DNA from: Acholeplasma laidlawii PG-8A
GTDB lineage: Bacteria > Bacillota_I > Bacilli_A > Acholeplasmatales > Acholeplasmataceae
Length of the DNA: 32,000 nt
Reading direction: 5' to 3'
Assembly: GCF_000018785.1 (NCBI RefSeq)
Contig: NC_010163.1
Coordinates: 630,001-662,000, forward strand
The translations under genes were made by a program, and so were the position numbers. The notes beneath the pieces were generated by a model. It made no database searches and had not been told where the DNA came from. It saw only the letters and a program-made list of their open reading frames with translations. Positions within the stretch are counted from its first letter, which is position 1. Each line of letters opens with the position of its first letter. Shown here in pieces: positions 1,166 to 31,347 of the stretch.

Positions 1166-1544
1166 CTATTACAATAGACATCCTAAAGGTATCAAAACTG
1201 GTGACTGTGTGGTTAGAGCAATCTCAACAGCATTTGATAAAGACTACATGGAAACAAGAAGAGAACTCAATCAGAAAAAACGTGAATGGAGTTTCACCAG
1301 TTACAAGGATACAGAGTTTATCTATAAGTATTTAGAGAATCGTCCAAGATACATTTTTAAAGCGGTTAAGGGTGAACCAAGGATTAAGGGTACAGACTTT
1401 GCACAGCTACATCCAACAGGAACATTTATATTAAAGATGGCCGGACACTTGAGTGTCTGTAAAGATGGTGTCATTCTAGACATTTGGGATTGCACCTATA
1501 GAAGTGTTTATACAGCATGGAGAATTGACGAGGAAACAACATGA
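1158..1544 (+). CDS. Hypothetical protein with a possible papain-like Cys/His arrangement
   Basis: TGDCVVRAIS near the N-terminus and AGHLSVCKDGVILDIWD near the C-terminus give a Cys...His...Asp order. Start and stop overlap the neighbouring genes. The fold assignment is inference only. Confidence 0.5.
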   Translation: MYNYYNRHPKGIKTGDCVVRAISTAFDKDYMETRRELNQKKREWSFTSYKDTEFIYKYLENRPRYIFKAVKGEPRIKGTDFAQLHPTGTFILKMAGHLSVCKDGVILDIWDCTYRSVYTAWRIDEETT

Positions 1545-1846
1545 AAGTAAATTTTATAAGAAAACCAACACCAGAGGAACTTATCCCTCAAGACGAATTT
1601 ATCGTCGAAAAGACCATAATTCTAGAAGGTGACGTATTTGAAGGATTCATCAGAGAACCATTAAACGATTATGATTTCATCAAAGAACATTTAGAATTGA
1701 TGTATTGTGATAAGGAAGGCATATTTCACTGCTTGTTAGTCACGTCCGATAAACATGACTTTGGTATCCTGGTTGAAAGTGAAGGATATCATTACGCTAG
1801 GTATGCAGCATTCATACCACTTATTAAAACCAAAACAGAAAATTAA
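1541..1846 (+). CDS. Hypothetical early protein, paralog B of 427..753
   Basis: ATGA overlap with the upstream gene. Colinear similarity to ORF 427..753. Confidence 0.6.
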   Translation: MKVNFIRKPTPEELIPQDEFIVEKTIILEGDVFEGFIREPLNDYDFIKEHLELMYCDKEGIFHCLLVTSDKHDFGILVESEGYHYARYAAFIPLIKTKTEN

Positions 1847-1893: not shown

Positions 1894-3042
1894 ATGAAAA
1901 TTATAACAAGTGAATCTGTCTTTAAAGGACACCCAGATAAAATATGTGACCAAATCAGTGATGCAATCTTAGATGCACATTTAGAGCAAGACAGAAATGC
2001 AAGAGTAGCAGTAGAAACAGCTATCAAAGATGATGTTGTTTTTATCTTTGGTGAGGTCACATCCAAAGCTTCAGTGAATTATAAAGAAGTCGCACTAACC
2101 ACATTAAAAGAAATCGGATATGATGATCCATTCGATGTGATTGAAAAGATATCCAAACAGTCCGATGATATTGCACTTGGTGTAAATCATACGAACGATC
2201 ATGAACAAGGTGCAGGTGATCAAGGCTTAATGTTTGGCTACGCTTGCAAAGAAACGCCAGAATTTATGCCTTTACCGATTGTGGTGGCACATGACATTGC
2301 AAGAAGCATTGACGAGCTTAGAAAGGCAAAGTATGGCCACGTGTTTGGTCCAGATGGTAAGTGTCAAGTTTCTGTAGTCTACGAGAATGATGAACCGATT
2401 GCTTATGAAACAATCGTAGTGTCTGCGCAAACAAAGCATGGCATTCAATTAGATTATGCTAAAGAGATAATTTTAAATGAAGTATTGAAACTACTGATAG
2501 GTGAAGACCTTTCACACATTCAAGTCTTAATCAATCCAACAGGTGCTTTTGTCGTTGGTGGACCATATGGAGATTCTGGATTAACTGGTAGAAAGATTAT
2601 TGTTGATACCTATGGTGGTTATGCTAAACATGGCGGTGGCGCATTCTCTGGCAAGGATGTGAGCAAGGTAGACCGCAGTGCGGCTTACTATGCCAGATTC
2701 GTAGCAAAAGCCCTTGTAGCGGCAAATTTAGCGAACAGGTGCGAAGTTAGTGTGTCCTATTCCATCGGTGTAGCAAACCCTGTAAGTGTATCCGTTGATA
2801 CCTTTGGAACAGGTGTTACTTCTGATGATGTTTTATTAAAGTTAATTAAAGAGAACTTCAACTTTACACCGTCAAGTATTATCAAAGAACTAAACCTGGA
2901 CAAAGTGAAGTTTAAACCGTTAGCATCTTATGGACATATAGGTCGTGTTGATCTTGATGTTGCATGGGAAAAAGTAGATGCAAAAGCTAAACAATTAAGT
3001 GAATCTTATGAGCAAACCAAAAGAACTGCACAGGTTCTATAA
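1894..3042 (+). CDS. metK: S-adenosylmethionine synthetase (methionine adenosyltransferase)
   Basis: SESVFKGHPDKICDQISDAILDA at the N-terminus, GAGDQGLMFGYA, DGKCQVSV, GGPYGDSGLTGRKIIVDTYGG and GGGAFSGKD. These are full-length MetK hallmarks (382 aa). GAGGAAA RBS. Confidence 0.95.
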   Translation: MKIITSESVFKGHPDKICDQISDAILDAHLEQDRNARVAVETAIKDDVVFIFGEVTSKASVNYKEVALTTLKEIGYDDPFDVIEKISKQSDDIALGVNHTNDHEQGAGDQGLMFGYACKETPEFMPLPIVVAHDIARSIDELRKAKYGHVFGPDGKCQVSVVYENDEPIAYETIVVSAQTKHGIQLDYAKEIILNEVLKLLIGEDLSHIQVLINPTGAFVVGGPYGDSGLTGRKIIVDTYGGYAKHGGGAFSGKDVSKVDRSAAYYARFVAKALVAANLANRCEVSVSYSIGVANPVSVSVDTFGTGVTSDDVLLKLIKENFNFTPSSIIKELNLDKVKFKPLASYGHIGRVDLDVAWEKVDAKAKQLSESYEQTKRTAQVL

Positions 3043-3292
3043 GTCGAAGGCTTGGCTCGTTGCTCGTAATATCAAAACAAACGCCACACAGGGCAAGTGT
3101 GAGCGGTGTGGCGCGATTGGTGAAGAGGTTCACCATAAGATTAGGCTGACTGTAGATAATGTCAATGATACCAATATTAGTTTGAATCAAGATAACTTAG
3201 AGTTGTTATGTAGGGACTGTCACAATAAAGAGCATGGACGATTCAAGAAACAAGAAGTACTGTTTGATGTGTTTGGAAATTTTACTGGTTGA
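2999..3292 (+). CDS. HNH endonuclease (phage packaging-associated type)
   Basis: CERCG...VHHK...NLELLCRDCHNKEH gives two CxxC pairs plus H-N-H. The likely true start is the ATG at 3008 (MSKPKEL). The gene overlaps the metK 3' end. Confidence 0.85.
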   Translation: MNLMSKPKELHRFYKSKAWLVARNIKTNATQGKCERCGAIGEEVHHKIRLTVDNVNDTNISLNQDNLELLCRDCHNKEHGRFKKQEVLFDVFGNFTG

Positions 3293-3313
3293 ATGGTAAA
3301 CAATCTTATAATG

Positions 3314-3322
3314 TGGTAAAAT
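3314..3322 (+). promoter_or_regulatory. Possible extended -10 promoter element upstream of the defence island
   Basis: TGGTAAAAT (TGn-TAAAAT), 36 nt upstream of the TTG start at 3358. The -35 (TGGTAA, 17 nt spacing) is weak. Confidence 0.25.
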
Positions 3323-3357
3323 TATAAAAAAGTCGTTTCAAAAAAGGGGTTGTTTCT

Positions 3358-4389
3358 TTGTCATTAGATACTACATATTCAATCTTACCGAAAGATTTAT
3401 CGGGTTCTAGAACTAAAAATAGATTTAGACAAGAGATGTTATGGGGAATTAGTAAAATATATGATCTTTATTTGGAGAACCCAGATGATTTTTTTGTTAT
3501 ATTTGACTATGTTTGTGATATTGAAGTTGGATTCAATGATACATTGCATTTTTATCAAGTAAAAACAAAAGATACTAGCAGTCCTTTTAGTATTTCGGAT
3601 CTAATTAGAAAGAAGAGTGGTCATTCTTATTTATCCTTGCTTTTTTCATTGAAGGTAAACAATCAAATCAAGAGTATTAATGTAGTTTCTAATACAAAAC
3701 TATCAATTAAAAATACCATACTTCAAAATTCTGAGATAATACCTTTTGAAAGTTTAGAAGATGATGAAAAGAAAAAAATTGAAGATCATCTTAAAGCAAA
3801 ATCTATTCTAGTCACAGATCTAAAGGACTCATTCTTCATAAGGTCAGATTTTTGCATTAATAATCCCGATACATTATTAATAGGTAAGACTGTTGAGTTT
3901 TTAGAAAATGCAAAAGGTATTAAATTAAGTGAACCAAAACTGATATATAATTACATAAAGGGATTGGTAGACAGAAAAGCAAGTTATGAGTTGAACACTA
4001 TTGATTTAAATGATACGATCGATAAAAAAGGAATAAAAAGAAGTGAAATTGATAACATATTGAATAATTTACTAGGCGCTGACAGATATAGAGAAAAGAC
4101 TTTATCTAAAATAGAGGCACTAAATGGTGATTATAATTATGGAGAAGTATTGCTTTTAAAAACCGCATTGTCTAGAGTTTTTAAATATGGGATTACATCA
4201 AAAACAATAGAAGCACTAATTGTAGATATTAGTAATTGTATCAATGATAATGAAAGTACTATTCAGGATTTGAAATTATCTGAGATAGTCGAATATGTCT
4301 ATAATTGTATTGAATGGGATATTATCAAGGATAAGTCAGAAAGAAAGTGCATAATACTATTGACATTAACAAAAATGGAAAGCGTGTAG
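3358..4389 (+). CDS. DUF4297/Cap4-type dsDNA nuclease domain protein, LmuA-like (Lamassu effector candidate)
   Basis: N-terminal GSRTKNRFRQEMLWG followed by FVIFDYVCDIEVGFNDTLHFYQVKTKD (D...D-x-E...QxK, PD-(D/E)xK-like). This matches my memory of the DUF4297 consensus. AAAGGGG RBS, TTG start. Confidence 0.65.
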   Translation: MSLDTTYSILPKDLSGSRTKNRFRQEMLWGISKIYDLYLENPDDFFVIFDYVCDIEVGFNDTLHFYQVKTKDTSSPFSISDLIRKKSGHSYLSLLFSLKVNNQIKSINVVSNTKLSIKNTILQNSEIIPFESLEDDEKKKIEDHLKAKSILVTDLKDSFFIRSDFCINNPDTLLIGKTVEFLENAKGIKLSEPKLIYNYIKGLVDRKASYELNTIDLNDTIDKKGIKRSEIDNILNNLLGADRYREKTLSKIEALNGDYNYGEVLLLKTALSRVFKYGITSKTIEALIVDISNCINDNESTIQDLKLSEIVEYVYNCIEWDIIKDKSERKCIILLTLTKMESV

Positions 4390-4398
4390 GTGAAATAG

Positions 4399-6084
4399 AT
4401 GAAAAACATGATTGTAAATAGCATTGCTATAATTAGTCCTAATAGTAAAACAGCAAAATATGCTGAATTTACTGCAGGAATTAATGTTGTCACATCTAAC
4501 AAAAATATAAACGGTAATTATGTGGGTAAATCTAGTCTACTAAGAAGTATTTATCATACATTAGGAGCAGATGGTAAGTTTACAACAAGCTTATGGGAAA
4601 GAGAAGGCAAGTACACATACATACTAGATTTTTCAATCAATAATAGCAGATTTAGAATGTTAAGATTTGATAATCTATTCAAATTGTATGATGAAAACAA
4701 TAGTTTATTATTTAAGGTTATAAATAGAACAGACCTAGCAATCGAACTTAACAAACTGTTTAACCAAGAAATTTATCTTAAAAATAAGAATAACGAATAT
4801 TCTATTGCACATCCTGCATTTAATTATCTATTAAATTATATTGATCAAAAAGAAATCCGTGTGTCGGAATTTAGCACATTTAATGGTTTGAATGCATTTT
4901 CTGCCTTTTATTCTGATTTATTATACTCACATTTGGGTGTTAACAACAAGCAATTTAATGAGTTGAAAATTGAATCAGATGAATTAAATAGAAAAATCGG
5001 TGAAATAAATAAGAAGAACCTAATGTTCAATGAAATGCTAGCACAAATAGATAAGAATAAAGATTTGAATTCAAATTACTCTGAGATTGAAGTTTTAAAA
5101 AAAGAACTGCAAAAACACCAAGATGAATATACTAAACTCATTGGTGAAGCAAACAAGTTAAAAGAAAAATTACTTAAGACAAATGATTCTAAGATAGAGA
5201 TTGAGTTTGCTATTAATGAATTACGAAAAATGATCAGTTCTGATGAGAAGGTATTAGATAAATCAATTAAGGAACACACATGTCCTATCTGCAATTCAGA
5301 GCTAAGAGATGATAGTCATGCATATATTCATAAAGCAGTTGATGTTGATGGTGCAAAATTTCAATTACTTGATGCTGAAAGAGAATTAGGTAAACTTAGT
5401 AGAGAAATCATTTTAACTAACAGTAAGTATGAAGACAATCTTGCGGAACTGAAAAGAATTGAAGCAAGAGTTTTTGAGGGTAATAAGGGTTTGGAAGATA
5501 CAATAAAATCTTATGGAATGAAAAAGATTAAGGCAAATATATTTGAAGAAATATCAAACAATGAAGTATCCAAAAATACATTTATTGAAGACAGAAAAAA
5601 GATTACAAAGCTACTCAGATCGCTTGATGAGAGAAAAAAGGAAGTTAACAAAAAATATTTGACTAATTTCTATGATATTTATCAAAAATATTCGCTTGGT
5701 GGGTTTGATTTATCTTCAATAGATAGTGTTGAAACAAAGATCAAAGTTGATGGAACGAGAGTTAATATTACTCAGGTTGCTTGGTTATGTTCATTGTTGA
5801 AGACCAAATACGAATTTAATCCGGATAGTTTAATTTACCCTTTAGTATTTGACAATCCTAATAATGCTGATTTTGATGAGGATAATGAAAGAAAAATATT
5901 TAATTTGATATTTGATAACTTACCGGAAAATGGGCAAATAATTACATCGTTAGTTGGATTTGATCAAAACCTGTATAATTCATATGAAATTAAGAAAAAA
6001 ATAATGTTGGTTAATCCTGAAAATTCACTATTAAATAATGATGATTTTGAATCGTGTTTAGATAGATATAGTTCAATTTTATAG
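4399..6084 (+). CDS. SMC/Rad50-like coiled-coil ATPase, LmuB-like (DUF3732-like)
   Basis: N-terminal P-loop-like GNYVGKSSLL. A long K/E-rich coiled-coil is interrupted by CPICNSEL, a CxxC that resembles a zinc hook. C-terminal IYPLVFDNPNN is Walker-B-like (hhhhD). AGGTGA RBS, 9 nt after the preceding gene. Confidence 0.6.
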   Translation: MKNMIVNSIAIISPNSKTAKYAEFTAGINVVTSNKNINGNYVGKSSLLRSIYHTLGADGKFTTSLWEREGKYTYILDFSINNSRFRMLRFDNLFKLYDENNSLLFKVINRTDLAIELNKLFNQEIYLKNKNNEYSIAHPAFNYLLNYIDQKEIRVSEFSTFNGLNAFSAFYSDLLYSHLGVNNKQFNELKIESDELNRKIGEINKKNLMFNEMLAQIDKNKDLNSNYSEIEVLKKELQKHQDEYTKLIGEANKLKEKLLKTNDSKIEIEFAINELRKMISSDEKVLDKSIKEHTCPICNSELRDDSHAYIHKAVDVDGAKFQLLDAERELGKLSREIILTNSKYEDNLAELKRIEARVFEGNKGLEDTIKSYGMKKIKANIFEEISNNEVSKNTFIEDRKKITKLLRSLDERKKEVNKKYLTNFYDIYQKYSLGGFDLSSIDSVETKIKVDGTRVNITQVAWLCSLLKTKYEFNPDSLIYPLVFDNPNNADFDEDNERKIFNLIFDNLPENGQIITSLVGFDQNLYNSYEIKKKIMLVNPENSLLNNDDFESCLDRYSSIL

Positions 6085-6085
6085 T

Positions 6086-6135
6086 CCCCCCCATTACCTT
6101 GCATTATGAAGTGTAAGGGTACCGCATGGGTGGGC
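6086..6135. repeat. GC-rich imperfect hairpin in the spacer between the Lamassu-like pair and the SIR2 gene
   Basis: CCCCCCCAT...ATGGGTGGG outer stem (one mismatch) with an inner ACCTT/AAGGGT stem. It is locally far more GC-rich than its surroundings and has no downstream T tract. Confidence 0.4.
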
Positions 6136-6200
6136 AATTAAAAAACATCAGCCCAAAATTTTGAAAATCGGAAATTAAATTTGAAAAAAGAGGTTATACA

Positions 6201-6956
6201 ATGGACGAATTGAGAAAAATATTTAATAGTAACAGATTACCAGCCTTTTTTGTAGGTGCTGGTATGTCAAAAAGGTATCTCAAAAATATGCCTTCATGGG
6301 ATGAATTATTAATATCTGTTTCAGATTATATTGGAATAAGTAAAACACAATATTATGGAATGAAACAACTTATAAATGAAGACAATATGCAAATGCCTAA
6401 GTTAGCCTCATTATTAGAAAATAAGATAAGAGATAAAGTCATAGACGGTACTTTTAACATTGATGAAGCTTTGTCAGATAAACTAAAAACTGAGATACCA
6501 AATAATGTTTCATTTCTAAAACTATTGATTGCTGAAAGACTTACCAAACTAGAAATCAAAGAAGATGAAAAAACTCAAAAAGAAATAAAGTCATTGAAGA
6601 AATCAATTAAAAAAATCAATAATATATTTACTACGAACTTCGATATGTTCTTTGAAAAATACGTATTGGATGACGATGATATGACTGTTTTTGATTCACA
6701 AGAGTCTTTGTACTTTACTAATTCATTTGGAATATCTGAAATGTATAAAATTCATGGTTCTATCCGCAATCCTAAATCAATGGTTATTAACGAAAAAGAC
6801 TATATAAATTATCTCGAAGATATGAATCTTTTTGTATCAAAACTTTATAATTCGCTTATCGAAAGGCCAATCATTTTTCTAGGATATGGATTAAATGACT
6901 CTAACATTTTAAAAATTTTAGAAGGATTTATTAAACACTTTAATTTAGATGATTGA
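6201..6956 (+). CDS. SIR2_2-family (sirtuin-like NADase) domain protein, N-terminal portion
   Basis: FFVGAGMS (GAGxS), TTNFD (the TTNYD motif), KIHGSI, NEKDY and IIFLGYGLNDSNI. This is the ordered motif set of defence-type SIR2_2 domains, and the catalytic-type Asn and His are present. Confidence 0.75.
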   Translation: MDELRKIFNSNRLPAFFVGAGMSKRYLKNMPSWDELLISVSDYIGISKTQYYGMKQLINEDNMQMPKLASLLENKIRDKVIDGTFNIDEALSDKLKTEIPNNVSFLKLLIAERLTKLEIKEDEKTQKEIKSLKKSIKKINNIFTTNFDMFFEKYVLDDDDMTVFDSQESLYFTNSFGISEMYKIHGSIRNPKSMVINEKDYINYLEDMNLFVSKLYNSLIERPIIFLGYGLNDSNILKILEGFIKHFNLDD

Positions 6957-7765
6957 AAAAGGTAGCAAACAACCTAATTTTTATGAATATTTTGGCTGGG
7001 GAAGAAAATCTACTTTTTGGCGAAGCTACATTTCAAGTTGGCAACAAGCAGATTACAATGAAAAAAATCAAAACAGATAATTATTCAAAAATATTCGATT
7101 ATATAAGTTCTGTTAAAGAAGCGATAAGTGCTAGAGAGATCAAAAGATATAAAGACATTGTGTACGATATCATAGCAAATCATGAAAAAAACGGTGAAAA
7201 AGTATTTGTTGTGAACGCACTGGATATTAACAAGATTGATTCTAACAAAATGGTTCTAGGTATACACCCCAAATATGACGAGACTTTGCCTACTAGAGGA
7301 TTAGTTGGTTTGGATACCGTAACCTTTATAGAACATGCTTTATATAATAATAGTACTATTAAATTTGAAGATATAGCAGGAGTTTGGGCAGAGAAAAGAT
7401 TGAGTAAAACTCATTATTTTCCAACCTATTATATAAAAAATAATGTAACAAATGGATTTAATTTTGGCGCTAAATATATTGCTAATTATGATGCGATGGA
7501 AAAAAGATATATTGAATTAAAGAAAAAAGCTGGGAATCTGAGCCAAGAGAAGATAACTCAATATGAACAAGACTACAATGATTCAGTACTTAAACCTACA
7601 AAAGATAAAAAAGATGTTCTTTTTCATAATTCTCTTTTGCTTCTGATTATAAAAAAAGTTTCTAAAGATGATTTCAGAGATTTTCTAAAAGAAATGTATA
7701 AAAAGAATAAAGAGTACATTAATAATTCTGGTTTTAAGCAATGTATCTGTTACTTGGATAGATGA
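6953..7765 (+). CDS. Either the C-terminal continuation of the SIR2 protein in the -1 frame or a separate coupled gene; no recognised domain
   Basis: The frame opens immediately after an in-frame TGA. The only start at the junction is TTG at 6953 (TTGA overlap); the next ATG is at 6983. There is no SD-like sequence upstream. NNLIFMNIL looks like the missing last Rossmann strand. Confidence 0.5.
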   Translation: MKKVANNLIFMNILAGEENLLFGEATFQVGNKQITMKKIKTDNYSKIFDYISSVKEAISAREIKRYKDIVYDIIANHEKNGEKVFVVNALDINKIDSNKMVLGIHPKYDETLPTRGLVGLDTVTFIEHALYNNSTIKFEDIAGVWAEKRLSKTHYFPTYYIKNNVTNGFNFGAKYIANYDAMEKRYIELKKKAGNLSQEKITQYEQDYNDSVLKPTKDKKDVLFHNSLLLLIIKKVSKDDFRDFLKEMYKKNKEYINNSGFKQCICYLDR

Positions 7766-7790
7766 TAAAAAAATTCGAGGATATTAAGAA

Positions 7791-8618
7791 ATGGATGTAT
7801 TATTACCTAAAAAAGTTTATAAGTATCGCAAATTTGTAGAAAATGACATTAATGCTCTAGAAAACCTTGAATTATGGGGTGCTACTGCATCAGCAATGGC
7901 AGACGAACATGATTGTGGTGTAGTGGCAAATCTAGATTTAATAACTGAATTTTTGAAAGGTAAAATGAAATCTGAATTCATTAATACAGTCTGCGAAAAT
8001 TTACTTAAACGCTTCAATGATTATTTCAGATCATCAAGATACATAATTTCCCTTTGCGATGATCACAGTGTAGATACTATGTGGAATCAATATTCTGACA
8101 ATCATAGTGGATTTGTCATCGAATATGACACGAATGATATTATCTTTTTAACTAATAAAATACTTGATAAAATATATAATGAATTGGAATTTTCAAATAA
8201 TATAAAGAATCATGAAGCTGTTAAAGAGTTATTGCGAAAGTATGATACTGGTTTTTATAAAGTTAAATACACGAATGAACCCTTTGATATTACCAAAGAA
8301 TTATTATCTGAGTTGGAAATCATGCATAAAGAAAGAGTATCTAATGAATATACAGTGGTAGATTATAATGATAAACATTTTTTTCATCAAGAAAAACTCA
8401 TAAAAAATATAGTAACGACAAAAAAACTAGAACTATCATATGAAAACGAATGGCGAGTTGTGGTGCCATCACTTTTTAAAAATATGACGGTTAAAGCAAT
8501 GCCTTTATTGAGAGTTAAACCATCAAAAATTATTGTAGGTTCATTTGTTTCACCTCAAAATAGGGAAAGAATAAATGATATAGCAAAAAAACTATGCATT
8601 AAAATAGATTTTAGATAA
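7791..8618 (+). CDS. DUF2971-like protein
   Basis: N-terminal VYKYRKF...NALENLELWGATASAMADEHD and a later YENEWRVV resemble the DUF2971 consensus (YHY...l.fs.p..fNDp.E ... E.EWR). Assigned from memory of the family, not from a search. Confidence 0.5.
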   Translation: MDVLLPKKVYKYRKFVENDINALENLELWGATASAMADEHDCGVVANLDLITEFLKGKMKSEFINTVCENLLKRFNDYFRSSRYIISLCDDHSVDTMWNQYSDNHSGFVIEYDTNDIIFLTNKILDKIYNELEFSNNIKNHEAVKELLRKYDTGFYKVKYTNEPFDITKELLSELEIMHKERVSNEYTVVDYNDKHFFHQEKLIKNIVTTKKLELSYENEWRVVVPSLFKNMTVKAMPLLRVKPSKIIVGSFVSPQNRERINDIAKKLCIKIDFR

Positions 8619-8645
8619 TTTGAAGAAATACATAGCAGGATAATT

Positions 8646-8978
8646 ATGGAAAAAACAAAAATAAACATTGAATATTTGCGACTTAAGTCGCTTTTTTCAT
8701 CTGTCGATGAAACCAAAACAGAACTAGTTGATAGTTTGATACAACAAGCAGCTTTTATGAAGGTTGAACTTGGAATACTTCAAAATCAAATCAGAATACA
8801 TGGAGCTGTTCAAGTTTCAAGTAAAGGTGCACAGCGTCAAACTGAAGCTGCAAAGTATTACACTAAGTTAGTTAATTCATATGGAACTGTAATAAAAACA
8901 CTCAACTCAATAATGGGTAAAAATATAATCGATGAAGATGATGAATTTGACAAGTTTATAGGTAGAATGTCTGAATGA
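8646..8978 (+). CDS. terS: Terminase small subunit (P27 family-like)
   Basis: 110 aa, lies immediately upstream of terL with an ATGA overlap. Size and helical character are typical of P27-type small terminases that pair with an HNH. Confidence 0.7.
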   Translation: MEKTKINIEYLRLKSLFSSVDETKTELVDSLIQQAAFMKVELGILQNQIRIHGAVQVSSKGAQRQTEAAKYYTKLVNSYGTVIKTLNSIMGKNIIDEDDEFDKFIGRMSE

Positions 8979-10612
8979 ATTACTTAATTAAATATTATGA
9001 CGAGATTCAAAAAGGAAATATCATTGTTGGTAAAGAATTACTAACAGTTCTAGAAACGCTAATTCAAGATATGGATAATCATAGATATACGTTTGATGAA
9101 AAGCCAGGAAATATTCGAATTGAGTTTATCGAAACATTTTGTAAGCATACGAAAAGTCCATTTAATGGTGAACCATTCATTTTAGAACTATGGGAAAAAG
9201 CAATTCTACAAGCTGCTTATGGATTCAAAATTGCTGATACCAATCTCAGGAGGTTTAATGAAGTAATTCTACTTATTGCTAGAAAGAATGGTAAGACTAC
9301 ATTCATTGCAGGTATTGATTTAGCAGAGTTTTTCTTATCTAAGGGTGGTGTTGATATTGTATGTGCTTCAAACACATCGGAGCAGGCTAATATATTGTTT
9401 GATGAAATCAACAACATGAGAGAAGGTTCAAAAGCATTATCAAATGAAAAAAGAAGTAAAAAGAATATTTTTCATATTTATTCACCAAAGTCAAAAAACA
9501 AGATAAAGAAACTATCCGCACAATCACGAAACAAAGATGGTTACAACATTGAAGTTGGTTGTATCGATGAAGTACATGAAATGACTGATTCTAAGGTTTA
9601 TGATGCGATCAAGCAAAGTCAATCGACCAAAGAAGAACCACTTATTTTTATCATTACAACTGAAGGTAATACAGTGGGTGGTTTCTTAGATAGCAAACTT
9701 GATTATGTTAGAAAGATGATCAAAGGGGAGATTAACGATGAACGTGTGCTTCCTTGGTTATACACTCAAGATTCAATTAATGAAATCTATGAAGATAAGA
9801 GCACATGGCAGAAAAGTAATCCAAGTTTAGGTACTGTAAAAACATATTCATATCTTGAAGACTTAATGAATAAATCCAGACATGACTTAGCAACACGAGT
9901 TACGATGCTTTGTAAAGACTTCAACATTAAGCAATTAGAACAAGGATCATGGTTAACTTATAATGATCTAAATAACGAATCAACCTATGATATCAATGAG
10001 TTAAGAAACAGTTATGCTATAGGCGGTGTTGACTTGTCATCAACAACAGACCTTACGGTTGCACTCTTACTTCTAATTAAAAATGGAAAGAAGTATGTTA
10101 TCCCACAGTTCTTTATGCCAAGTGAAGTTATAAAGCGCAGAAAGGAAGAGGATAACGTTCCCTATGACATTTGGGTTCAACGAGGTTTAATCACTGTTAC
10201 AGAAGGTAATCAAAATGACTTCACACTTGTTACACAGTGGTTTCTAATGATGATTAGGACATATGAGATTAGACCTCTATGGGTAGGTTATGATCCGTGG
10301 AATAGTCAGTACTGGACTAAAGAAATGGAAGACTTAGGGTTTGAAATGGAAAAGGTCAGACAAGGAATATACTCTTTATCAGAACCTATGAAACAACTTG
10401 AAGCGGATCTTAAAAATGGTAATGTAATCTATAATAATAATCCAATCATGAAATGGAACTTGTCTAATACTCAAGCAAAGATTGATATCAATGGAAATAT
10501 TCAGCCATCAAAACTTGGAAGCAAGTATAAAAGAATTGATGGAGCTGTAGCACTTATTATTGCTTATGCAGTGCTTAATAGATATAAGTTAGAATATGAA
10601 AATATGTTATAA
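8975..10612 (+). CDS. terL: Terminase large subunit
   Basis: 545 aa. Walker A-like ARKNGKTT, Walker B-like GCIDEVHE, and a C-terminal nuclease region (GGVDLSSTTDLT ... GYDPWN ... IDGAVALIIA). Position is upstream of the portal gene. Confidence 0.93.
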   Translation: MNYLIKYYDEIQKGNIIVGKELLTVLETLIQDMDNHRYTFDEKPGNIRIEFIETFCKHTKSPFNGEPFILELWEKAILQAAYGFKIADTNLRRFNEVILLIARKNGKTTFIAGIDLAEFFLSKGGVDIVCASNTSEQANILFDEINNMREGSKALSNEKRSKKNIFHIYSPKSKNKIKKLSAQSRNKDGYNIEVGCIDEVHEMTDSKVYDAIKQSQSTKEEPLIFIITTEGNTVGGFLDSKLDYVRKMIKGEINDERVLPWLYTQDSINEIYEDKSTWQKSNPSLGTVKTYSYLEDLMNKSRHDLATRVTMLCKDFNIKQLEQGSWLTYNDLNNESTYDINELRNSYAIGGVDLSSTTDLTVALLLLIKNGKKYVIPQFFMPSEVIKRRKEEDNVPYDIWVQRGLITVTEGNQNDFTLVTQWFLMMIRTYEIRPLWVGYDPWNSQYWTKEMEDLGFEMEKVRQGIYSLSEPMKQLEADLKNGNVIYNNNPIMKWNLSNTQAKIDINGNIQPSKLGSKYKRIDGAVALIIAYAVLNRYKLEYENML

Positions 10613-10629
10613 TTTTATAGGGTGATTTA

Positions 10630-11154
10630 ATGAGCAAAGTATTTGATGATGTAGTCAAGTTGAAAGTCTATGAAAAAAACATTAATCAATATGATTCTAT
10701 TATCGATAACTTTTTATCGAGGTATTTTATTTGTGAAACATATGCAAAAGAGTTACAGAAGAATGAACTTTATAGTAATAACAAAGCGGAGTTAATGAAA
10801 CAATTCAAAAAGGAAATAGGACAATTATTGACATCAGAATCTTTAGAAAAAAGATTAGATACATTAGATATGTCAAAGTTCAAAATCTTTAATGAAAGAA
10901 AAAATGACATCAATGTAGGAACATTGAAAAGAATTATTCCAAACGAGAAGTTTAATGAAGATGATTTAAACTTGATATTTTACTCTACAGCAATTAAGAA
11001 TGCAAATAATGATAATATTAAGACTGCTAGAGTATTAAGAAATGAAATTGTACATAGCCTTAGTGAATCAGCGATGAATGAAGTGAAATCTAGGAACACT
11101 GAATTGCTTAAAATCATGACCAGTTTCATTGAATTATTCAGGAGTAATAGTTAA
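10630..11154 (+). CDS. Small HEPN-like protein (Rx4H motif), a moron between terL and portal
   Basis: VLRNEIVHSL at aa 135-144 (R137-x4-H142; nt 11038-11055) in a predicted all-helical 174-aa protein. AGGGTGA RBS. No phage structural role is expected at this position. Confidence 0.45.
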   Translation: MSKVFDDVVKLKVYEKNINQYDSIIDNFLSRYFICETYAKELQKNELYSNNKAELMKQFKKEIGQLLTSESLEKRLDTLDMSKFKIFNERKNDINVGTLKRIIPNEKFNEDDLNLIFYSTAIKNANNDNIKTARVLRNEIVHSLSESAMNEVKSRNTELLKIMTSFIELFRSNS

Positions 11155-11169
11155 AAAGAGGTGATATAG

Positions 11170-23590: not shown

Positions 23591-24240
23591 TGCCTAGAAA
23601 GTTTAGTGATAGCAAGTTAACTGAAATCGTAGTTAATATGTTTGCTATGAATGAAGTCATGTTTATTTATTATTGCGGTTCAGATAACTACAAGACAAAA
23701 CAAAAGAAGTCCGATACTGACTTGACCGTTGTATTAAATAACTTCAATGGAATTATTCATGCTTCAATTGAAGGTGTTGATATATTCGCTTATGGTTATG
23801 AGAACTTTTTACAAAGACAGTCTATGAATGATACGTTGCCGCTATATAATCTAATTCATGCTGATGATGTGATCAATATGACTGAGAATCTAATCTATGT
23901 TAATCCAAGTTATCAAACAGAATACAACAGTATCATAGCTTTAAAGTTTGAAGATGTTTTACCTCAATACTTGGATGCAGTCATTGAGTATTTTAATCAA
24001 CTGGTCAATGTTGAAAAAGTCATAGTTAAAAGAAGTTATCACATTATAAGAATTAGAGGTATTTTAGAGAAATACTTAGAAACTGGAAAATATGATGTGA
24101 ACCTAAATGAGGTATGGTTAAACAAAGTATTTGAACATAAGAAAAACTGGGATAAGGACTTAAACACACCTGACCACTTAAACCAGTTAAAAACATATCT
24201 TGATGAAATAATTACAATTAGAGAAGGTTTGAGAAAGTGA
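23587..24240 (+). CDS. Pol-beta-superfamily nucleotidyltransferase-like protein
   Basis: IYYCGS-x10-DTDLTVVL (hG[GS]...DxD, aa 27-50), with a further acidic residue on the next predicted strand (GVDIF, D65), then a helical C-terminal half. Located between the fibre genes and the holin. Confidence 0.45.
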   Translation: MMPRKFSDSKLTEIVVNMFAMNEVMFIYYCGSDNYKTKQKKSDTDLTVVLNNFNGIIHASIEGVDIFAYGYENFLQRQSMNDTLPLYNLIHADDVINMTENLIYVNPSYQTEYNSIIALKFEDVLPQYLDAVIEYFNQLVNVEKVIVKRSYHIIRIRGILEKYLETGKYDVNLNEVWLNKVFEHKKNWDKDLNTPDHLNQLKTYLDEIITIREGLRK

Positions 24241-24665
24241 AAGTTAAATACTTGATATTAACAATTGTAGGATCTTTAGGTTCCTTAGCCTCATACCTAT
24301 TTGGAGGATTTGATAAATTGTTAATTGCACTCATAATCTTCATGATTATTGATTTTCTATCTGGTTTAATCTTAGCAATCGTATTTAAAAAGAGTAGCAA
24401 AACAAAGAGCGGCAGAGTGAGTAGTGAAGCAGGTATTAAAGGACTGGCCAAGAAAATATTCATTCTCTTTTTAGTTGCTTTAGCTGAACAACTAGACATT
24501 GTTTTAGGTACTAATCTTGTAAGGGATGGAGCCGTTATTGCTTTCATATCTATGGAAGGTGTAAGTATCTTAGAAAATTCAACCCTTGCAGGATTACCAG
24601 TTCCAAGAATGATTAAAAACGCACTTGAAGTGCTAAGTAAAGGTGAGGATAAGAAAGATGAATAA
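24237..24665 (+). CDS. Holin (phage_holin_4_1 / TcdE-like family)
   Basis: 142 aa with three predicted TM segments. LIALIIFMIIDFLSGLILAI and the following basic loop are typical of this holin family. Confidence 0.78.
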   Translation: MKVKYLILTIVGSLGSLASYLFGGFDKLLIALIIFMIIDFLSGLILAIVFKKSSKTKSGRVSSEAGIKGLAKKIFILFLVALAEQLDIVLGTNLVRDGAVIAFISMEGVSILENSTLAGLPVPRMIKNALEVLSKGEDKKDE

Positions 24666-24981
24666 TACAGAATTAATTACCACAATTATCAGTGTGATAC
24701 TTTCACTCGTATCTATCGGATTAGGTTACTGGTCAAAAAGAAACTCTAAAGCAAAAGTATACTATGAAACTTTTATCAAAGTTGAAGAACAAATCAAGAA
24801 GCTCTGTATTGATGCAGAAAAGAATTACACTAAAGGCGATCAAAAGAAGAAATACGTGATCTCAAGTATAAATCAGTTTCTGACTGATCAGAAGATCGCA
24901 ATTGATCTCGATACTATAGAAGGCATTATTGAATCAATTATCGATGTTTCTAACCAAATTAATAAGTCAAATAAATTGTAA
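24643..24981 (+). CDS. Second holin-like protein (LL-H holin family-like)
   Basis: The likely start is the ATG at 24658 (MNNTEL). One N-terminal TM (LITTIISVILSLVSIGLGYW) is followed by a helical region with GDQKKKYV...IEGIIESII. Confidence 0.55.
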   Translation: MRIRKMNNTELITTIISVILSLVSIGLGYWSKRNSKAKVYYETFIKVEEQIKKLCIDAEKNYTKGDQKKKYVISSINQFLTDQKIAIDLDTIEGIIESIIDVSNQINKSNKL

Positions 24982-25223: not shown

Positions 25224-25436
25224 ATGAATAGAGAACAACTAAAACTCAATGTAGAAGAATTACAGAAAAAAGGCTATGTCTATAAAAGGATAGCAAAAGA
25301 ATTATCAATCACAGTTAGTTCAGCAAGATATATCTGTTCAAAGCATAATGAATCAAAATTAGATCAAGAGGTTTGTAAACATTGTGGTTCAAAAATCAAA
25401 TCAATTAAAGCCAAAAAGAAAATGATAAAATTTTAA
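25224..25436 (+). CDS. Small HTH/CxxC protein, possibly a chimeric remnant fused to the truncated recombinase
   Basis: GAGGAGG RBS. GYVYKRIAKELSITVSSARY is HTH-like and CKHCGSK is a half zinc ribbon. The ORF ends in a K-rich tail exactly where the recombinase homology begins in another frame. Confidence 0.4.
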   Translation: MNREQLKLNVEELQKKGYVYKRIAKELSITVSSARYICSKHNESKLDQEVCKHCGSKIKSIKAKKKMIKF

Positions 25437-26430
25437 TAGTTGAAGACGAAGCAGAAATAGTTAGACGCATTTATAGAATGTTTTTAGTTGAAGGAAAAAC
25501 TGCAACCGGCATAGCCACTTACTTAAAAAAACTTCATGTTAAAACACCTTCTGGCAAAAACACTAATTGGACCAAAAACACAATAACATCAATTCTAAGT
25601 AATGAAAAGTATAAAGGTGATGCACTACTTCAAAAGACTTTATAGATGATTTCTTAGAAAAATCAGTAGTTAAAAATACGGGCCAAATTCTTCAATATTA
25701 TGTTGAGAATAGTCATCCAGCAATCATTGATAAAAACACTTGGGAACTTGTACAGTTGGAACTAAAAAGAAGGAGTGTACTTGGACCTAAATATTCTGGT
25801 AGTAACTTATTCTCTTCAAAACTTGTATGCGAAGACTGCGGTGGTTTTTATGGAAAGAAAAAATGGCACTCAGGAAGTATGCACGAGAAGATTGTTTATC
25901 AATGCAACAACAAGTTTGATAAAGGAAAAGACAAATGCCAAACTCCACACTTGAGTGAGGAAACAGTAAAGACTAAGTTCATTGAAGCGTATAATTTAAC
26001 GATGGGAGATAAAAGAAGAATTATTGACGATTCAAAAGAAGTTATTGGCTTACTAACCGACACTATCAAAATTGATGATGAGATTGTAAAAATTAATGAA
26101 GAGATTACAATTGTTTCAGAGCTTGTTAGTAAACTGGTTAAGGAAAACTCAAAGACAGATATTCAATTCGGGGAGTACAACAAAAGATACGAAGAGTTAT
26201 CAGAACGTTATGAAAAATTAAGACTTAGACATGAAGAACTATTAAAACAAAAGAATAGCAAACAAGCAAAAGCCATAAAGCTTAGAGCATTCATTTCAAG
26301 CCTTGAAAACTCTGATCACCAGATAAAATATTGGAATGAAATGATATGGATGTTAATAGTTGAAAGCGCAACAGTTCATAGAGATTCAAGTGTTACATTT
26401 AAGTTTCACAATGGGTTGGAGATTAAATAG
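25409..26430 (+). pseudogene. Large serine recombinase remnant. The N-terminal resolvase catalytic domain is absent and there is an internal frameshift near 25640.
   Basis: Frame A (25439-25645): VEDEAEIVRRIYRMFLVEGKTATGIATYLKKLHVKTPSGKNTNWTKNTITSILSNEKYKGDALLQKTL then stop. Homology continues in the adjacent frame from 25639: FIDDFLEKSVVKNTGQILQYYVENSHPAIIDKNTWELVQLELKRR, then a zinc ribbon (CEDCGG...YQCNNK) and a coiled coil. No Ser-catalytic domain precedes it. Confidence 0.8.
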
Positions 26431-26566: not shown

Positions 26567-27382
26567 TTGAAAAAAATATATACTATAATTTTAATCGTTA
26601 TCAGTGGATTTTTTTTAAGTAGTTGTCAATCTAACCTTGATTTTGACTTTATAATTCCTGACAAAGAAGACTATTCCATAAATGAGATCATCTTCGATGA
26701 TTTTACTCAATCAACAATTATCGACTTTGATAATATAACTGAGGAATCGTTGCTTTCTGCACAGCAAGCAAATATTTATATATCCAACATTTCATATAAT
26801 GATAAATGGTTTTTTTCAAAGAAGGACAATTACACTGGAAGTGGAGTTATTTTTTTTGAAACAGAGTCATTCTATTATGCACTAACTAACGCGCACGTTG
26901 TTGATAAACATCAAGACTTTGAGAATCATATTATTGAAGTATATGACTATTTTAATAATAAATATAACGCCTTTGTTTATGAAGGAAGCTTTAACTATGA
27001 CTTGGATTTAGCGGTTTTGGTTTTTTATAAAAACGAAGTAGAACTGACTGTTTTGAATATTGTGTATGGTGAGATTGGGGTTGGTGACAATATCATAGCA
27101 ATCGGAAACCCACTCGGTGAAAAGAATGTTATTTCTGTTGGTAAAGTTATAAGATATAACAAAACAAGAGTTGAGGATAGATACGGAAATATTAAAACTA
27201 ATGAATTTAACTCGATAATTCATAGTAGTAAGACAAATGCTGGATCAAGCGGAGGGATGATTTTGAATTTCGATTTAAAAATAGTTGGAATAAACTATGG
27301 AGGGAATCGCAGCGAAGAAAACCCTGAGGGGTTTGCGGTTTCATCCAAATTAGTAATTGATTTTTTATTAAGAATAATCTAG
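26567..27382 (+). CDS. Trypsin-like (S1) serine protease lipoprotein
   Basis: Signal peptide with lipobox FFLSSC. Catalytic triad contexts are LTNAHVV (His), DLAVLVF (Asp) and NAGSSGGMIL (Ser). AAGGAGGG RBS with a TTG start. Confidence 0.8.
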   Translation: MKKIYTIILIVISGFFLSSCQSNLDFDFIIPDKEDYSINEIIFDDFTQSTIIDFDNITEESLLSAQQANIYISNISYNDKWFFSKKDNYTGSGVIFFETESFYYALTNAHVVDKHQDFENHIIEVYDYFNNKYNAFVYEGSFNYDLDLAVLVFYKNEVELTVLNIVYGEIGVGDNIIAIGNPLGEKNVISVGKVIRYNKTRVEDRYGNIKTNEFNSIIHSSKTNAGSSGGMILNFDLKIVGINYGGNRSEENPEGFAVSSKLVIDFLLRII

Positions 27383-27431
27383 TAAAATAAGCTAAAAATA
27401 TAGACATCATTAGCGTAGTTACTATGTAATG

Positions 27432-27440
27432 TGCTAGAAT
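27432..27440 (+). promoter_or_regulatory. Possible extended -10 element upstream of mcrB
   Basis: TGCTAGAAT (TGn-TAGAAT), 65 nt upstream of the ATG at 27505. No good -35. Confidence 0.3.
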
Positions 27441-27504
27441 ATATCTAAATGAGAACGGTAAGTAAACAAGATTTAAAAATGAATTAAATGAGAGGGCTTT
27501 TATA

Positions 27505-29949
27505 ATGATTAATGATATTAATAGGTTTATACAATTAGCAGACACTAATAATTTAAAAACAAAAGAAATAGAGACTCAAATTACAAATAATAATAGAGAT
27601 ATTATTGGCAATTTTCATGTAACTGTATCTTTTGGAGTTACAAATGTCGCTAACATACCGTGGTTTTCTATTAGCAGATTTACTGACTATAAAGAAGATG
27701 CTCCGGTTTTTTTGTATTACAAAAAGCAAAACAAATTAGTTCTATCATTTGGTGTTAAAGAGGAAAAAAATAATAAGGATAGTTTGAAATATAATTTTAA
27801 ATGGAATGATTTAATAAGAGAAAATTATCAAACTGTTCAAGAATATTTTGGTGAAAGAGTAGATAGATATGGTGACAGTTATGTGTATAAAACCTTTGAT
27901 GTTGCAAATTCAGTAGTAGCTAATGGAGAATCTATTAGCACTGATTTAACAGAAATGTTAATGACATATAAAAAACAATTACCTTGTGGTTCACTAATTA
28001 ATTATATAAAGGCTAATTATACAAGTTATCTTAATAAATTTTTAGGAGTAATGGATAAAGAAAGAGTGGATTTTCTTAATGCATTCCCGTTAAACAATTT
28101 GTTGAATATAACCTTAGATGATTATAGTAAAAACGGGAATAAAGATTCATTCACAAATTATATTGAAAATAAAACTTCTAACATATGTTCGGGAAATTTA
28201 GGTATAAATCCAAACAAATTATTTTATCCTAAGAATAATGGGTATGAAGTTTTAAGTACAGTAAGTAGTGCATATGAAACGTTCGGATCTGTTAATTTAA
28301 AGTTTGATGAATTCAAGAGAGAATTACACTATTTTATAACGAACTTTAATATTAATAATTATCAAACACTAAATGTATTGAAATTTAGAGCAAATATTAT
28401 AAAGTTCAATGTACTTAGACTATATAGAAATGATGTAGCTTTATATGGTTTGCCATCACAAAGAGAATTGTCTAAGATATTAGTGAAGATAGGGCTGAAC
28501 ATAAATAGCGATGATAGTATTGCAAAAAGCATCATTCTTACTAACTATTTAATTAGTCAAGACCCACAAATTGTAAATTTGAATACGGATATTGTAAATA
28601 GATTAATTTGGGATTACAAAGTTGATTGTATAGATTCTAATGTTAATCAAGAAGATTCAAGCGAAGACTCTAATGAGGAGGAGAAAATTTCAATGAATAA
28701 GAACTTTGATAAGAACTTAATATTATATGGTCCTCCAGGGACAGGTAAAACATATAACACTAAGATATATGCTGTTGCTATTTGCGATGATCTTGATTTA
28801 GATGAAGTAAAAAATCGAAACTATGACGATGTTTTGAAAAGATATGATGAGTTAGTGTTAGAAAACAGAGTTAAATTTACAACGTTCCATCAATCCTATG
28901 GTTATGAAGACTTTATTGAAGGTTTATATCCTGAAATTAAAAATGGCTCTGACCAAATTACTTATCGAGTTAAAGCAGGAGTTTTTAAAGCTTTTTGTGC
29001 GAATGAATCCTTTGATAGTCTTTGGGATTCCTTTGTCTTAGATGTTAAGAATGGAAAAGTTAAATGGGGAGATATTCTCCCTAACGCTGACGAACACAAA
29101 AAAGATACAGTTTTAAGCGTAAATGGCAACGGAAATATTGATCTTCCTTATGCAAACGGGGTTCCATTTACAAGAGAAAATGCAAAAAAAATCTATTTAG
29201 GTCAAGAAGTTGATAACACGCAAAAAGATTATTTTGAAAAAGTATTTAATTATTTCAAGAAAAATTATATGAATAAACAAAATAAGGGCAATAAAAAAGT
29301 GTTTATTATTGACGAAATTAACCGAGGCAATATTTCTAAAATATTTGGAGAATTAATCACCTTAATTGAAGATACAAAACGTAAAGGTGAAAAAGAAGAA
29401 ATGAGTATTACATTACCATACTCTAAAAAACCATTTACAGTTCCAAATAATGTTCACATTCTAGGTACAATGAACACTGCTGACAGATCGATTGCTTTAA
29501 TGGATACAGCATTAAGAAGAAGATTTGCATTTGAAGAGATGATGCCAGAACCAGAACTTATTAAAGCAGAAGTTGATGGATTGAAAATATCTGAGATGTT
29601 GACAGCAATTAACAAAAGAATTGAAGTTTTATATGATAGAGAACATACTATTGGACATGCATTTTTTATGGACAAAAAGTTGGAACTAGGTGATCTAGCT
29701 CACATATTTAAAAATAAAATAATTCCTTTATTACAAGAGTACTTCTATGAGGACTATGAAAAAATCCAATGGGTGCTTGGTGATAATGAAAAAACTGATG
29801 AATCATTTAAATTTATCAAACAAATAAAAAATGAAGCAAATATTTTCAAAGGTAAAAATGGTGCTGATATGAATGCTCTTCCAGAGTATAGATATGAGAT
29901 AAATAAAAAGGCATTTGACAAAATAGAAAGTTACAAACAAATAAAATAA
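27505..29949 (+). CDS. mcrB: McrB-family AAA+ GTPase with a DUF3578-like N-terminal DNA-binding domain
   Basis: The N-terminal FHVTVSFGVTNVANIPWFSI matches the DUF3578 pattern (S.G.gn.a.vPW). Also present: Walker A LILYGPPGTGKTY, Walker B VFIIDEINRGN, the McrB signature GTMNTADRS and MDTALRRRFAF. Confidence 0.9.
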   Translation: MINDINRFIQLADTNNLKTKEIETQITNNNRDIIGNFHVTVSFGVTNVANIPWFSISRFTDYKEDAPVFLYYKKQNKLVLSFGVKEEKNNKDSLKYNFKWNDLIRENYQTVQEYFGERVDRYGDSYVYKTFDVANSVVANGESISTDLTEMLMTYKKQLPCGSLINYIKANYTSYLNKFLGVMDKERVDFLNAFPLNNLLNITLDDYSKNGNKDSFTNYIENKTSNICSGNLGINPNKLFYPKNNGYEVLSTVSSAYETFGSVNLKFDEFKRELHYFITNFNINNYQTLNVLKFRANIIKFNVLRLYRNDVALYGLPSQRELSKILVKIGLNINSDDSIAKSIILTNYLISQDPQIVNLNTDIVNRLIWDYKVDCIDSNVNQEDSSEDSNEEEKISMNKNFDKNLILYGPPGTGKTYNTKIYAVAICDDLDLDEVKNRNYDDVLKRYDELVLENRVKFTTFHQSYGYEDFIEGLYPEIKNGSDQITYRVKAGVFKAFCANESFDSLWDSFVLDVKNGKVKWGDILPNADEHKKDTVLSVNGNGNIDLPYANGVPFTRENAKKIYLGQEVDNTQKDYFEKVFNYFKKNYMNKQNKGNKKVFIIDEINRGNISKIFGELITLIEDTKRKGEKEEMSITLPYSKKPFTVPNNVHILGTMNTADRSIALMDTALRRRFAFEEMMPEPELIKAEVDGLKISEMLTAINKRIEVLYDREHTIGHAFFMDKKLELGDLAHIFKNKIIPLLQEYFYEDYEKIQWVLGDNEKTDESFKFIKQIKNEANIFKGKNGADMNALPEYRYEINKKAFDKIESYKQIK

Positions 29950-29956
29950 TAGATAG

Positions 29957-31261: not shown

Positions 31262-31347
31262 TTTTCTGGAATTCAAAAAAAATTATATTTAATTATTGCT
31301 ATATGTTATTCTCTTCACATAATCAAAGAAAAGGATGTGAAGATTAA

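Follow-up and report, generated by a model that had tools for sequence, protein, structure and literature searches.

Two cargo hotspots flanking a probable cos site in an HK97-like prophage lineage of Acholeplasma laidlawii and related Mollicutes

We analyzed a 32,000-nucleotide stretch of the Acholeplasma laidlawii PG-8A chromosome (NC_010163.1, positions 630,001 to 662,000; hereafter the window, to whose first letter all coordinates refer) that carries an HK97-type prophage, with the genes for the large terminase (TerL), portal, S78 protease, and capsid in their usual order according to Pfam and PHROG matches (packaging and head families PF03354/PF20441, PF04860, PF04586, PF05065, and PF01844). 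With an HNH endonuclease gene near the terminase genes, the prophage has the gene set of an HK97-like, HNH-dependent packaging module. Our subject is the interval from 3293 to 8645, which separates the HNH gene from a probable small terminase gene (terS) and holds genes that resemble known or candidate anti-phage systems. The explanation that we favor, with a probability of about 0.8, is that two hotspots lie astride a probable cos site in a lineage of HK97-like prophages of Acholeplasmataceae and related Mollicutes, and that in the window the left one is occupied by a predicted Lamassu system and the right one by a SIR2 gene and a DUF2971 gene (Table 1). Within this explanation, the idea that the interval holds swappable accessory cargo, in one or more hotspots between HNH and terS, is strongly supported.

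Cos-adjacent hotspots of diverse, often exchanged anti-phage systems are already known from P2 and P4 (Rousset et al. 2022, PMC9122126); what is new here is the phage lineage, the two-sided slot, a conserved element between the two sides, a promoter box, and a hairpin in terS. The literature that we searched held no earlier description of a hotspot at the HNH/terS junction.

Table 1. Features of the HNH-terS interval, its borders, and the adjacent terL-portal slot in the window
Feature	Position	Strand	Evidence and role
S-adenosylmethionine (SAM) synthetase (MetK)	1894..3042	+	Pfam S-AdoMet_synt N/M/C, E 9e-32 to 5e-62; anchors the locus on the left
HNH endonuclease, terminase-associated, gp74-like by position	2999..3292	+	PF01844, E 7e-07; PHROG 119/144 HNH, phrog_4581; left hotspot border
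Extended -10-like box TGGTAAAAT	3314..3322	+	36 nt 5' of lmuA; candidate resident promoter of the left slot
LmuA, predicted Lamassu effector with N-terminal Cap4-type (DUF4297) nuclease	3358..4389	+	PF14130, E 6.9e-24 (residues 15-208); PADLOC PDLC00239, E 2.8e-69
LmuB, predicted SMC/Rad50-like ATPase sensor	4399..6084	+	PADLOC PDLC00254, E 7.5e-171, residues 1-560 of 561
Conserved non-coding element	6086..6169	+	nhmmer profile; divides the island; best cos candidate
SIR2-domain defense candidate, PDC-S25-like	6201..7765	+	PF13289 SIR2_2; PADLOC PDC-S25; split here into open reading frames 6201-6956 and 6953-7765
DUF2971 protein, PDC-S31-like, single-gene defense candidate	7791..8618	+	PF11185, E 1.2e-11 (above cut-off); PADLOC PDC-S31, E 1e-24, three stretches
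Probable small terminase (terS-like), 110 aa	8646..8978	+	4-nt overlap with terL; phrog_1066; right hotspot border
Hairpin GCGAC-UUAA-GUCGC (stem-loop 8678-8691) followed by U6	8678..8697	+	33 nt into terS; candidate intrinsic terminator or attenuator
Large terminase (TerL), HK97 type	8975..10612	+	PF03354, PF20441
orf174, cargo of the terL-portal hotspot	10630..11154	+	GC 0.269; singleton in the gap 10613-11169

A variable interval divided by a conserved element

The interval differs from the rest of the window in composition. Its GC content (0.279) is the lowest among all 533 segments of 5353 bp in the 32 kb, compared with 0.372 in the left flank, 0.336 in the right phage flank, and 0.346 in the core phage genes; at third codon positions the values are 0.218 versus 0.265, and the gap is present at all three codon positions. 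The AT-rich block that the initial annotation had placed between the end of HNH (3292) and the start of the terS-like gene (8646) is thus borne out. That annotation had also counted five co-oriented, non-structural genes in the block. Positions 3358 to 8618 are indeed occupied by five such open reading frames (ORFs) on the plus strand, but they amount to four genes and three systems, because the ORFs at 6201-6956 and 6953-7765 form a single 521-aa ORF in both sibling assemblies described below and are therefore the halves of one SIR2 gene. The translated genes match defense families and not packaging families, which suggests that the interval is cargo without a packaging function.

Using TerL and MetK as queries, 235 related loci were gathered from genomes and IMG/VR, nearly all of them from Acholeplasmataceae, Izemoplasmatales, and other Mollicute or Bacillota metagenome-assembled genomes. 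With >500 matches in IMG/VR for TerL and likewise for MetK, the lineage is an abundant one. The closest isolated phages share only ~40% TerL identity, and a megablast search of 12.4 kb of the window against GenBank phages gave no match. Two sibling assemblies are 99.94-99.98% identical to the window over 16 kb: LS483439.1, an A. laidlawii chromosome (99.975% over 16 kb), and LZGE01000011.1, both assigned to A. laidlawii (PMC5668537, PMC7844077). The census of the hotspot was made with the 117 relatives that have both flanks and share TerL, portal, HNH, and MetK. MetK lies directly 5' of HNH in nearly all relatives and is a conserved partner in the backbone; nucleotide homology with close relatives reaches the HNH stop codon and breaks off there.

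What lies beyond that stop codon varies from one relative to the next. The gap between HNH and terS ranges from 17 to 4849 bp in the 117 relatives, the 5353 bp of the window being the largest, and it is filled by 110 distinct sequences, whose 238 ORFs fall into 140 protein clusters, 231 of the ORFs (97%) being co-oriented with the late genes. The window cargo was found in 0/117 of them, where only distant homologs of LmuB (24% identity) or homologs of DUF2971 occur. Near-empty gaps are also found (17-170 bp in relatives and 97 bp in the isolated Clostridioides difficile phage JD033), and for this reason we take direct adjacency of HNH and terS to be the ground state. The proposal of a cargo hotspot at this junction, made from the window alone, therefore holds up in the alignment of relatives: none of those sharing the packaging genes has the same set of genes at this position, the composition of the block is not phage-like, and its genes show no sign of a packaging role. 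As in the hotspots of P2 and P4, conserved flanks enclose variable content, and this content includes known anti-phage systems. PADLOC matches of the cargo clusters in the relatives comprise Stk2, LmuA/B, bSEFIR, PD-T4-6, mad6, the Argonaute-associated Aga_REase, and PDC-S11/S31/S32/S49/S51/M68B, and Pfam matches comprise TIR_2, SEFIR, KAP_NTPase, PIN_12, and DUF4238.

The interval is divided by an 84-bp non-coding element located in the GC-rich part of the 116 bp that separate lmuB from the SIR2 gene. The element consists of a C7 run, a variable spacer of ~24 nt but of fixed length, and the blocks GGGTACCGCATGGGTGGGC and AATTAAAAAAC, followed by TTTTGAAAATC; after the invariant GGTACCG, which is part of GGGTACCGCATGGGTGGGC, come the blocks TTAAAAAAC and TTTTTGAAAAT. 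An alignment of 71 sequences of the element contains zero indels, spacer included. A search with nhmmer found one plus-strand copy in the window and in 106/160 TerL-anchored relatives, every time inside the HNH-terS gap. Between the HNH stop and the element lie 8-2951 bp, and between the element and terS 8-3065 bp, so that either side may be nearly empty or filled; in two relatives with a 167-bp gap the distances are 15 and 68 bp, and the element sits in mid-gap. Two cassettes, at 3358-6084 and 6201-8618, had been proposed at the outset, and the boundary between them (6084/6201) coincides with this element.

Left and right cargo assort independently, and thus two hotspots flank one element. 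Among 94 loci, 75 left types and 56 right types occur in 83 combinations, and the same cassette can be found with different partners and on backbones that range from 79% to 98% in TerL identity to the window. Lamassu itself changes sides, being in the right slot of three relatives (L006, L123, and L126) and in the left slot of the window.

In the HNH-dependent cos phages studied, cos lies in the intergenic region between HNH and terS. The element is the only conserved non-coding sequence at that place, and for this reason we read it as the probable cos, i.e., the region recognized and cleaved by the terminase; its single copy and its conservation point the same way. The HNH protein is known to cooperate with terminase and to stimulate its cleavage at cos (PMC9410871). 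Adjacency to cos, the remaining property of P2/P4-type hotspots, would be provided in the window by this conserved single-copy candidate at the canonical position.

The best-surviving alternative is that the 84-bp element is not cos but a regulatory site of the late operon (for an activator or antiterminator) or a site of replication or partition type, with cos elsewhere, for example at the 3' end of HNH or the 5' end of terS. The blocks TTAAAAAAC and TTTTTGAAAAT do resemble protein-binding A/T tracts, and none of the isolated phages, including those of known ends, gave a convincing match to the element. A hairpin with a T-run straight after the element in 21/106 loci, all with an empty right slot, would also suggest a transcriptional boundary. 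Nevertheless, we consider this reading unlikely, given the usual location of cos and the cooperation of HNH with terminase there. Empty gaps of 167 bp contain essentially no other non-coding sequence than the element, and its GC-rich blocks, at a constant spacing in a genome rich in AT, are in keeping with a site of recognition and nicking. It has no sigma-70-like pair of hexamers and no sign of a role as RNA (0 pairs with RNAalifold and no match in Rfam). Even if the element were not cos, the two-slot architecture would persist, just not flanking cos.

Two further observations concern the element. Four contigs start within it and none ends there, which could have been taken as a sign of cos, but they are explained equally well if assembly broke off at a repeat that the co-assembled phages have in common, and contig ends were discarded as evidence. 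Where the right sub-slot is empty (L102:6003-6050, L097, L109, L003, and L091, among others), the hairpin that lies past the element and before terS has the form AAGTCAC-N-GTGGC-T7, with -14.2 kcal/mol and z -4.3, and is not present in the window.

Cargo of the two slots in the window

The left slot holds lmuA and, beginning 9 nt past its stop codon, lmuB. The PADLOC match of LmuA is full length (residues 1-341 against model positions 1-344 of 349), and the translation of LmuB contains a Walker A motif (GNYVGKSS), a central CPIC, and a deviant Walker B motif (LVFDNP). There is no ORF for lmuC between or beside the two genes, the conserved element being what comes next. Because the lack of lmuC defines type I Lamassu (10.1101/2025.06.23.660979), the pair would be a two-gene type I system by gene content, with predicted activity. 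In Lamassu, the LmuB dimer keeps LmuA monomeric until foreign DNA ends are sensed, whereupon LmuA tetramerizes and degrades DNA (10.1101/2025.06.23.660979; PMC12663957). The type I Lamassu of Bacillus cellulasensis NIO-1130 is likewise a two-gene operon without lmuC, with a Cap4 (DUF4297) domain in LmuA and an SMC/Rad50-like LmuB that has a deviant Walker B (10.1101/2025.06.23.660979; PMC12663957). Unlike it, the pair in the window is prophage-borne, in a Mollicute, has a predicted activity and trigger, and is too diverged for phmmer to reach the solved structures.

The first gene of the right slot is the SIR2 gene. Its N half covers positions 13-244 of the PDC-S25 model (E 4e-60) and its C half positions 251-510 (E 5e-30). 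Both siblings carry the intact SIR2 ORF, a single polypeptide of the ~520 aa expected for PDC-S25, while in the window a frameshift at 6952/6953 divides it into 251 + 270 aa. Compared with the siblings, the window has lost a T at 6952 and another at 6984 and has gained one at 6990, all three in T-runs and within 40 nt. The ORF pair is thus one SIR2 gene, frameshifted or mis-sequenced here. Genetic code 4, with TGA read as tryptophan, was considered as the reason for the split and rejected, since past the TGA at 6954 a TAG follows three codons on and the siblings show a 1-nt indel. A look-up of the 251-aa ORF returned no record.

The SIR2 domain could be aligned to ThsA (6lhx, E 1.4e-07), with TTNFD/YKIHGS opposite TTNYD/YKMHGD of ThsA, so that the context of the catalytic Asn and His is kept. 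ThsA chains are the structures nearest to it, and it shares with ThsA of Thoeris and with DSR1/DSR2 the SIR2_2 domain and the ThsA-type Asn/His context. In contrast to ThsA, it has no SLOG/STALD domain and no ThsB partner, and it is frameshifted in the window; as a single polypeptide, it could use its C-terminal domain as a sensor.

The second gene of the right slot codes for the DUF2971 protein. This family includes Aristaios, a single-gene abortive infection system of lactococcal plasmids, with a predicted ADP-ribosyltransferase (ART) fold (PMC11381338, PMC12522546), and ARTs have as catalytic motifs a conserved Tyr and ExE (PMC12522546). An E-N-E within YENEWR, a candidate ExE, was seen by eye in the translation. 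The window protein resembles Aristaios and PDC-S31 in being a stand-alone DUF2971 protein of ~300 aa with that predicted fold (PMC11381338). The similarity to Aristaios is at the level of the family only, and the match to PDC-S31 is broken into three stretches. A tblastn search of the protein against plasmids gave a weak match in Vibrio and none in lactococci, and hence no direct link to Aristaios.

Candidate expression signals, a proposed mechanism, and competing explanations

The initial annotation had suggested that the cargo has a promoter of its own, and this idea gains support from the conserved box TGnTAWAAT after HNH, a candidate promoter represented in the window by TGGTAAAAT. Within -12..+40 nt of the HNH stop, TGNTAWAAT is found in 76/106 distinct relatives, against ~0.008 expected per such stretch. 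Only this positional conservation in relatives is informative, as the count of TGNTAWAAT over the whole window is at chance level; a scan for two-hexamer promoters gave 38 sites where 42.5 would be expected by chance.

It had also been stated that there is no terminator before terS and that the cargo would be read through with the late operon. A terminator scan of the plus strand found no terminator-like site from 3293 to 8449, in agreement with the first part. However, the DUF2971 gene contains a weak terminator-like hairpin (8450-8469), and a second one, conserved and followed by T6, lies just inside terS (minimum free energy -8.3 kcal/mol, z -3.5). Because of this second hairpin, simple, unregulated read-through of the cargo into the late operon seems doubtful and may be wrong in the lysogen. 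In 80 relatives, 89.3% of the cells of the hairpin are paired, and 5/7 pairs show double changes, with stem variants such as GCGAC/GTCGC, GCGAT/ATCGC, GAGAC/GTCTC, and GTACCTT/AAGGTAC and frequently a UUCG loop. Its covariation is 0.270, compared with 0.189 in shuffles (0/500 as high) and <=0.189 in slid controls, a value confounded by the coding constraint on RLKSLF.

The gene that contains the hairpin is itself a probable small terminase gene. The ORF has no direct family match in Pfam, NCBIfam, or PDB, and the assignment comes from its position and from its homology by hhalign to the ORFs directly 5' of TerL in phages CBP1 (99% probability) and JD033 (97.6%), the former of which has a weak, sub-threshold match to Terminase_4 (E 0.03).

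From these elements, a mechanism can be proposed. Cassettes would be swapped by homologous recombination between related phages, with the end of HNH, the central element, and the start of terS as anchors. In the lysogen, the cargo would be expressed from the extended -10 box after HNH or from promoters in the cassettes, and the hairpin with its U-run at the 5' end of terS would, if the hairpin is real, keep this transcription out of the terminase genes as long as lytic growth has not begun. The systems might then guard the lysogen by abortive infection. By analogy with studied Lamassu, LmuA would be released from LmuB upon sensing of foreign DNA ends and the DNA degraded; SIR2 would deplete NAD+, and the DUF2971 protein would ADP-ribosylate a target.

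Several points weigh against the explanation of two defense-carrying hotspots astride cos. The SIR2 gene is disrupted in the window sequence, and this frameshift, together with a fragmentary serine recombinase, suggests possible decay of the prophage and maybe of its cargo. PDC-S25 and PDC-S31 are unvalidated PADLOC candidates, and LmuA and LmuB had no detectable match to solved structures (phmmer, PDB sequences). Most cluster representatives of the slot proteins in relatives lack a family match, and some slot proteins are not clearly defensive (DUF4314/DUF3846, DUF1643, amidoligase, and PadR). The location of cos is deduced only from position, single copy, and conservation, and expression in the lysogen is a prediction.

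Some of these points would fit another explanation, in which a domesticated prophage is decaying and the island is a relic within it, the cargo being non-functional or partly functional and its diversity the product of neutral turnover. The frameshift, the absence of a resolvase domain among the recombinase fragments, and the majority of slot ORFs without a known function in relatives would all be expected from it. We find it quite improbable, though, since LmuA, LmuB, and the DUF2971 protein are full length against their models, and SIR2 is intact in two siblings, with three T-run indels within 40 nt being typical of sequence error. The structural module is also intact, without interruption, and selection on expression would account for the 97% co-orientation of the cargo and for the conserved promoter box. 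Finally, cargo that serves the lytic cycle of the phage (degradation of host DNA, anti-defense, or a packaging accessory) and not the protection of the lysogen would agree with its orientation along the late genes, the lack of a terminator 5' of terS, the neighboring MetK and ParB-methyltransferase, which look like counter-defense, and the methyltransferases often held in the terL-portal slot, but it is very improbable, because the families matched by the four genes are all ones defined by anti-phage defense or by association with defense islands, and the cargo is dispensable, being unique to the window prophage among 117 relatives with the same packaging genes.

Two cargo hotspots astride a probable cos remain the explanation that we favor, and they can be compared with known systems. 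As in the P2/P4 hotspot, a short interval beside the packaging signal of a temperate element, here a probable one, has core genes as conserved borders and holds diverse anti-phage cargo (PMC9122126). The window prophage is, in contrast, an HK97-like siphovirus with an HNH-dependent terminase, whereas P2 is a myovirus and P4 its satellite; its hosts are wall-less Mollicutes, of a different phylum; the borders are HNH and terS and not gpA and gpQ; and in this lineage the candidate cos is flanked by cargo left and right, which assorts independently. Cos is here a candidate, and the defensive role of the cargo a prediction. With the HK97 gp74 module, the prophage shares an HNH gene at the genome end beside terS/terL and the HK97-type TerL, portal, S78 protease, and capsid (PMC9410871). 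It differs in that 5.3 kb of cargo parts HNH from terS, in that HNH overlaps a phage MetK gene, and in that terS belongs to an uncharacterized family (phrog_1066).

The rule of swappable immune genes beside the packaging site would thus extend from the enterobacterial P2/P4 to an unrelated, HK97-like lineage of Mollicutes, whose phages and phage defenses are barely studied. Two or three delimited slots with well over a hundred uncharacterized protein families would make a location-based list for discovery, and the element, the promoter box, and the terS hairpin would be testable handles, for cargo expression in the lysogen without terminase and for cassette exchange. A more speculative idea, which we regard as possible and put forward tentatively, is that the HNH-cos-terS junction acts as an integrase-free "expression dock," in which a resident promoter drives any cassette, the anchors allow independent exchange on the left and on the right, and the terS hairpin insulates until antitermination or late activation. 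If so, cargo expression beside a packaging site would have an architecture that is both defined and portable, and the ~140 slot protein families would become a ranked list of defense candidates from wall-less bacteria.

Other variable slots and neighboring genes

The junction between TerL and portal is a further hotspot. Its gap is <100 bp in 75/153 relatives and reaches up to 4590 bp in the rest, with 48 protein clusters that include type II or orphan methyltransferases, UzuA, and PDC-S31. In the window it holds orf174, whose family search gave no match; just 5' of this gene, at 10605-10613, is TGTTATAAT, a box similar to that after HNH. In L047 (8348-9823) and about 20 other loci with 75-77% TerL identity, more distant relatives from rumen and gut, a 1.3-1.7 kb insert was found between the terS-like gene and terL, which in L047 codes for a 491-aa BspA-type leucine-rich-repeat protein.

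On the downstream side, the late operon closes with two holin genes (24237-24981; Phage_holin_4_1 and Holin_LLH). No endolysin-family gene was found among the ORFs scanned, which would fit a wall-less host. A large serine recombinase occurs 3' of the holins only in fragments (25224-26430): a helix-turn-helix-like 70-aa ORF, a 55-aa ORF with a Recombinase domain, and a 224-aa ORF with a Zn ribbon. Given these remnants without a resolvase domain, the prophage may be unable to excise. Past them, from 26567 to 31857, genes for a trypsin-like peptidase, an McrB-like AAA_5 protein (814 aa), McrC (PF10117, E 1e-90), and an SprT-like protein have a GC content of ~0.29; this looks like another defense cluster, at the end of the prophage or in adjoining host DNA.

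On the upstream side, the 3' end of MetK overlaps HNH, and 5' of MetK, at 60-335, there is a ParB_N-fused N6/N4 DNA methyltransferase; MetK and this enzyme may be a module for self-supplied methylation or counter-restriction. The conserved region 5' of MetK also contains two paralogous small genes, at 427-753 and 1541-1846 (both phrog_21303; Pfam DUF6329). The neighborhood of the prophage is defense-rich on this side too, since LS483439.1 has, beyond the upstream end of the window (L236:1-2881), a gene for the type I restriction subunit HsdR (1047 aa), ~3 kb 5' of the ParB-methyltransferase.

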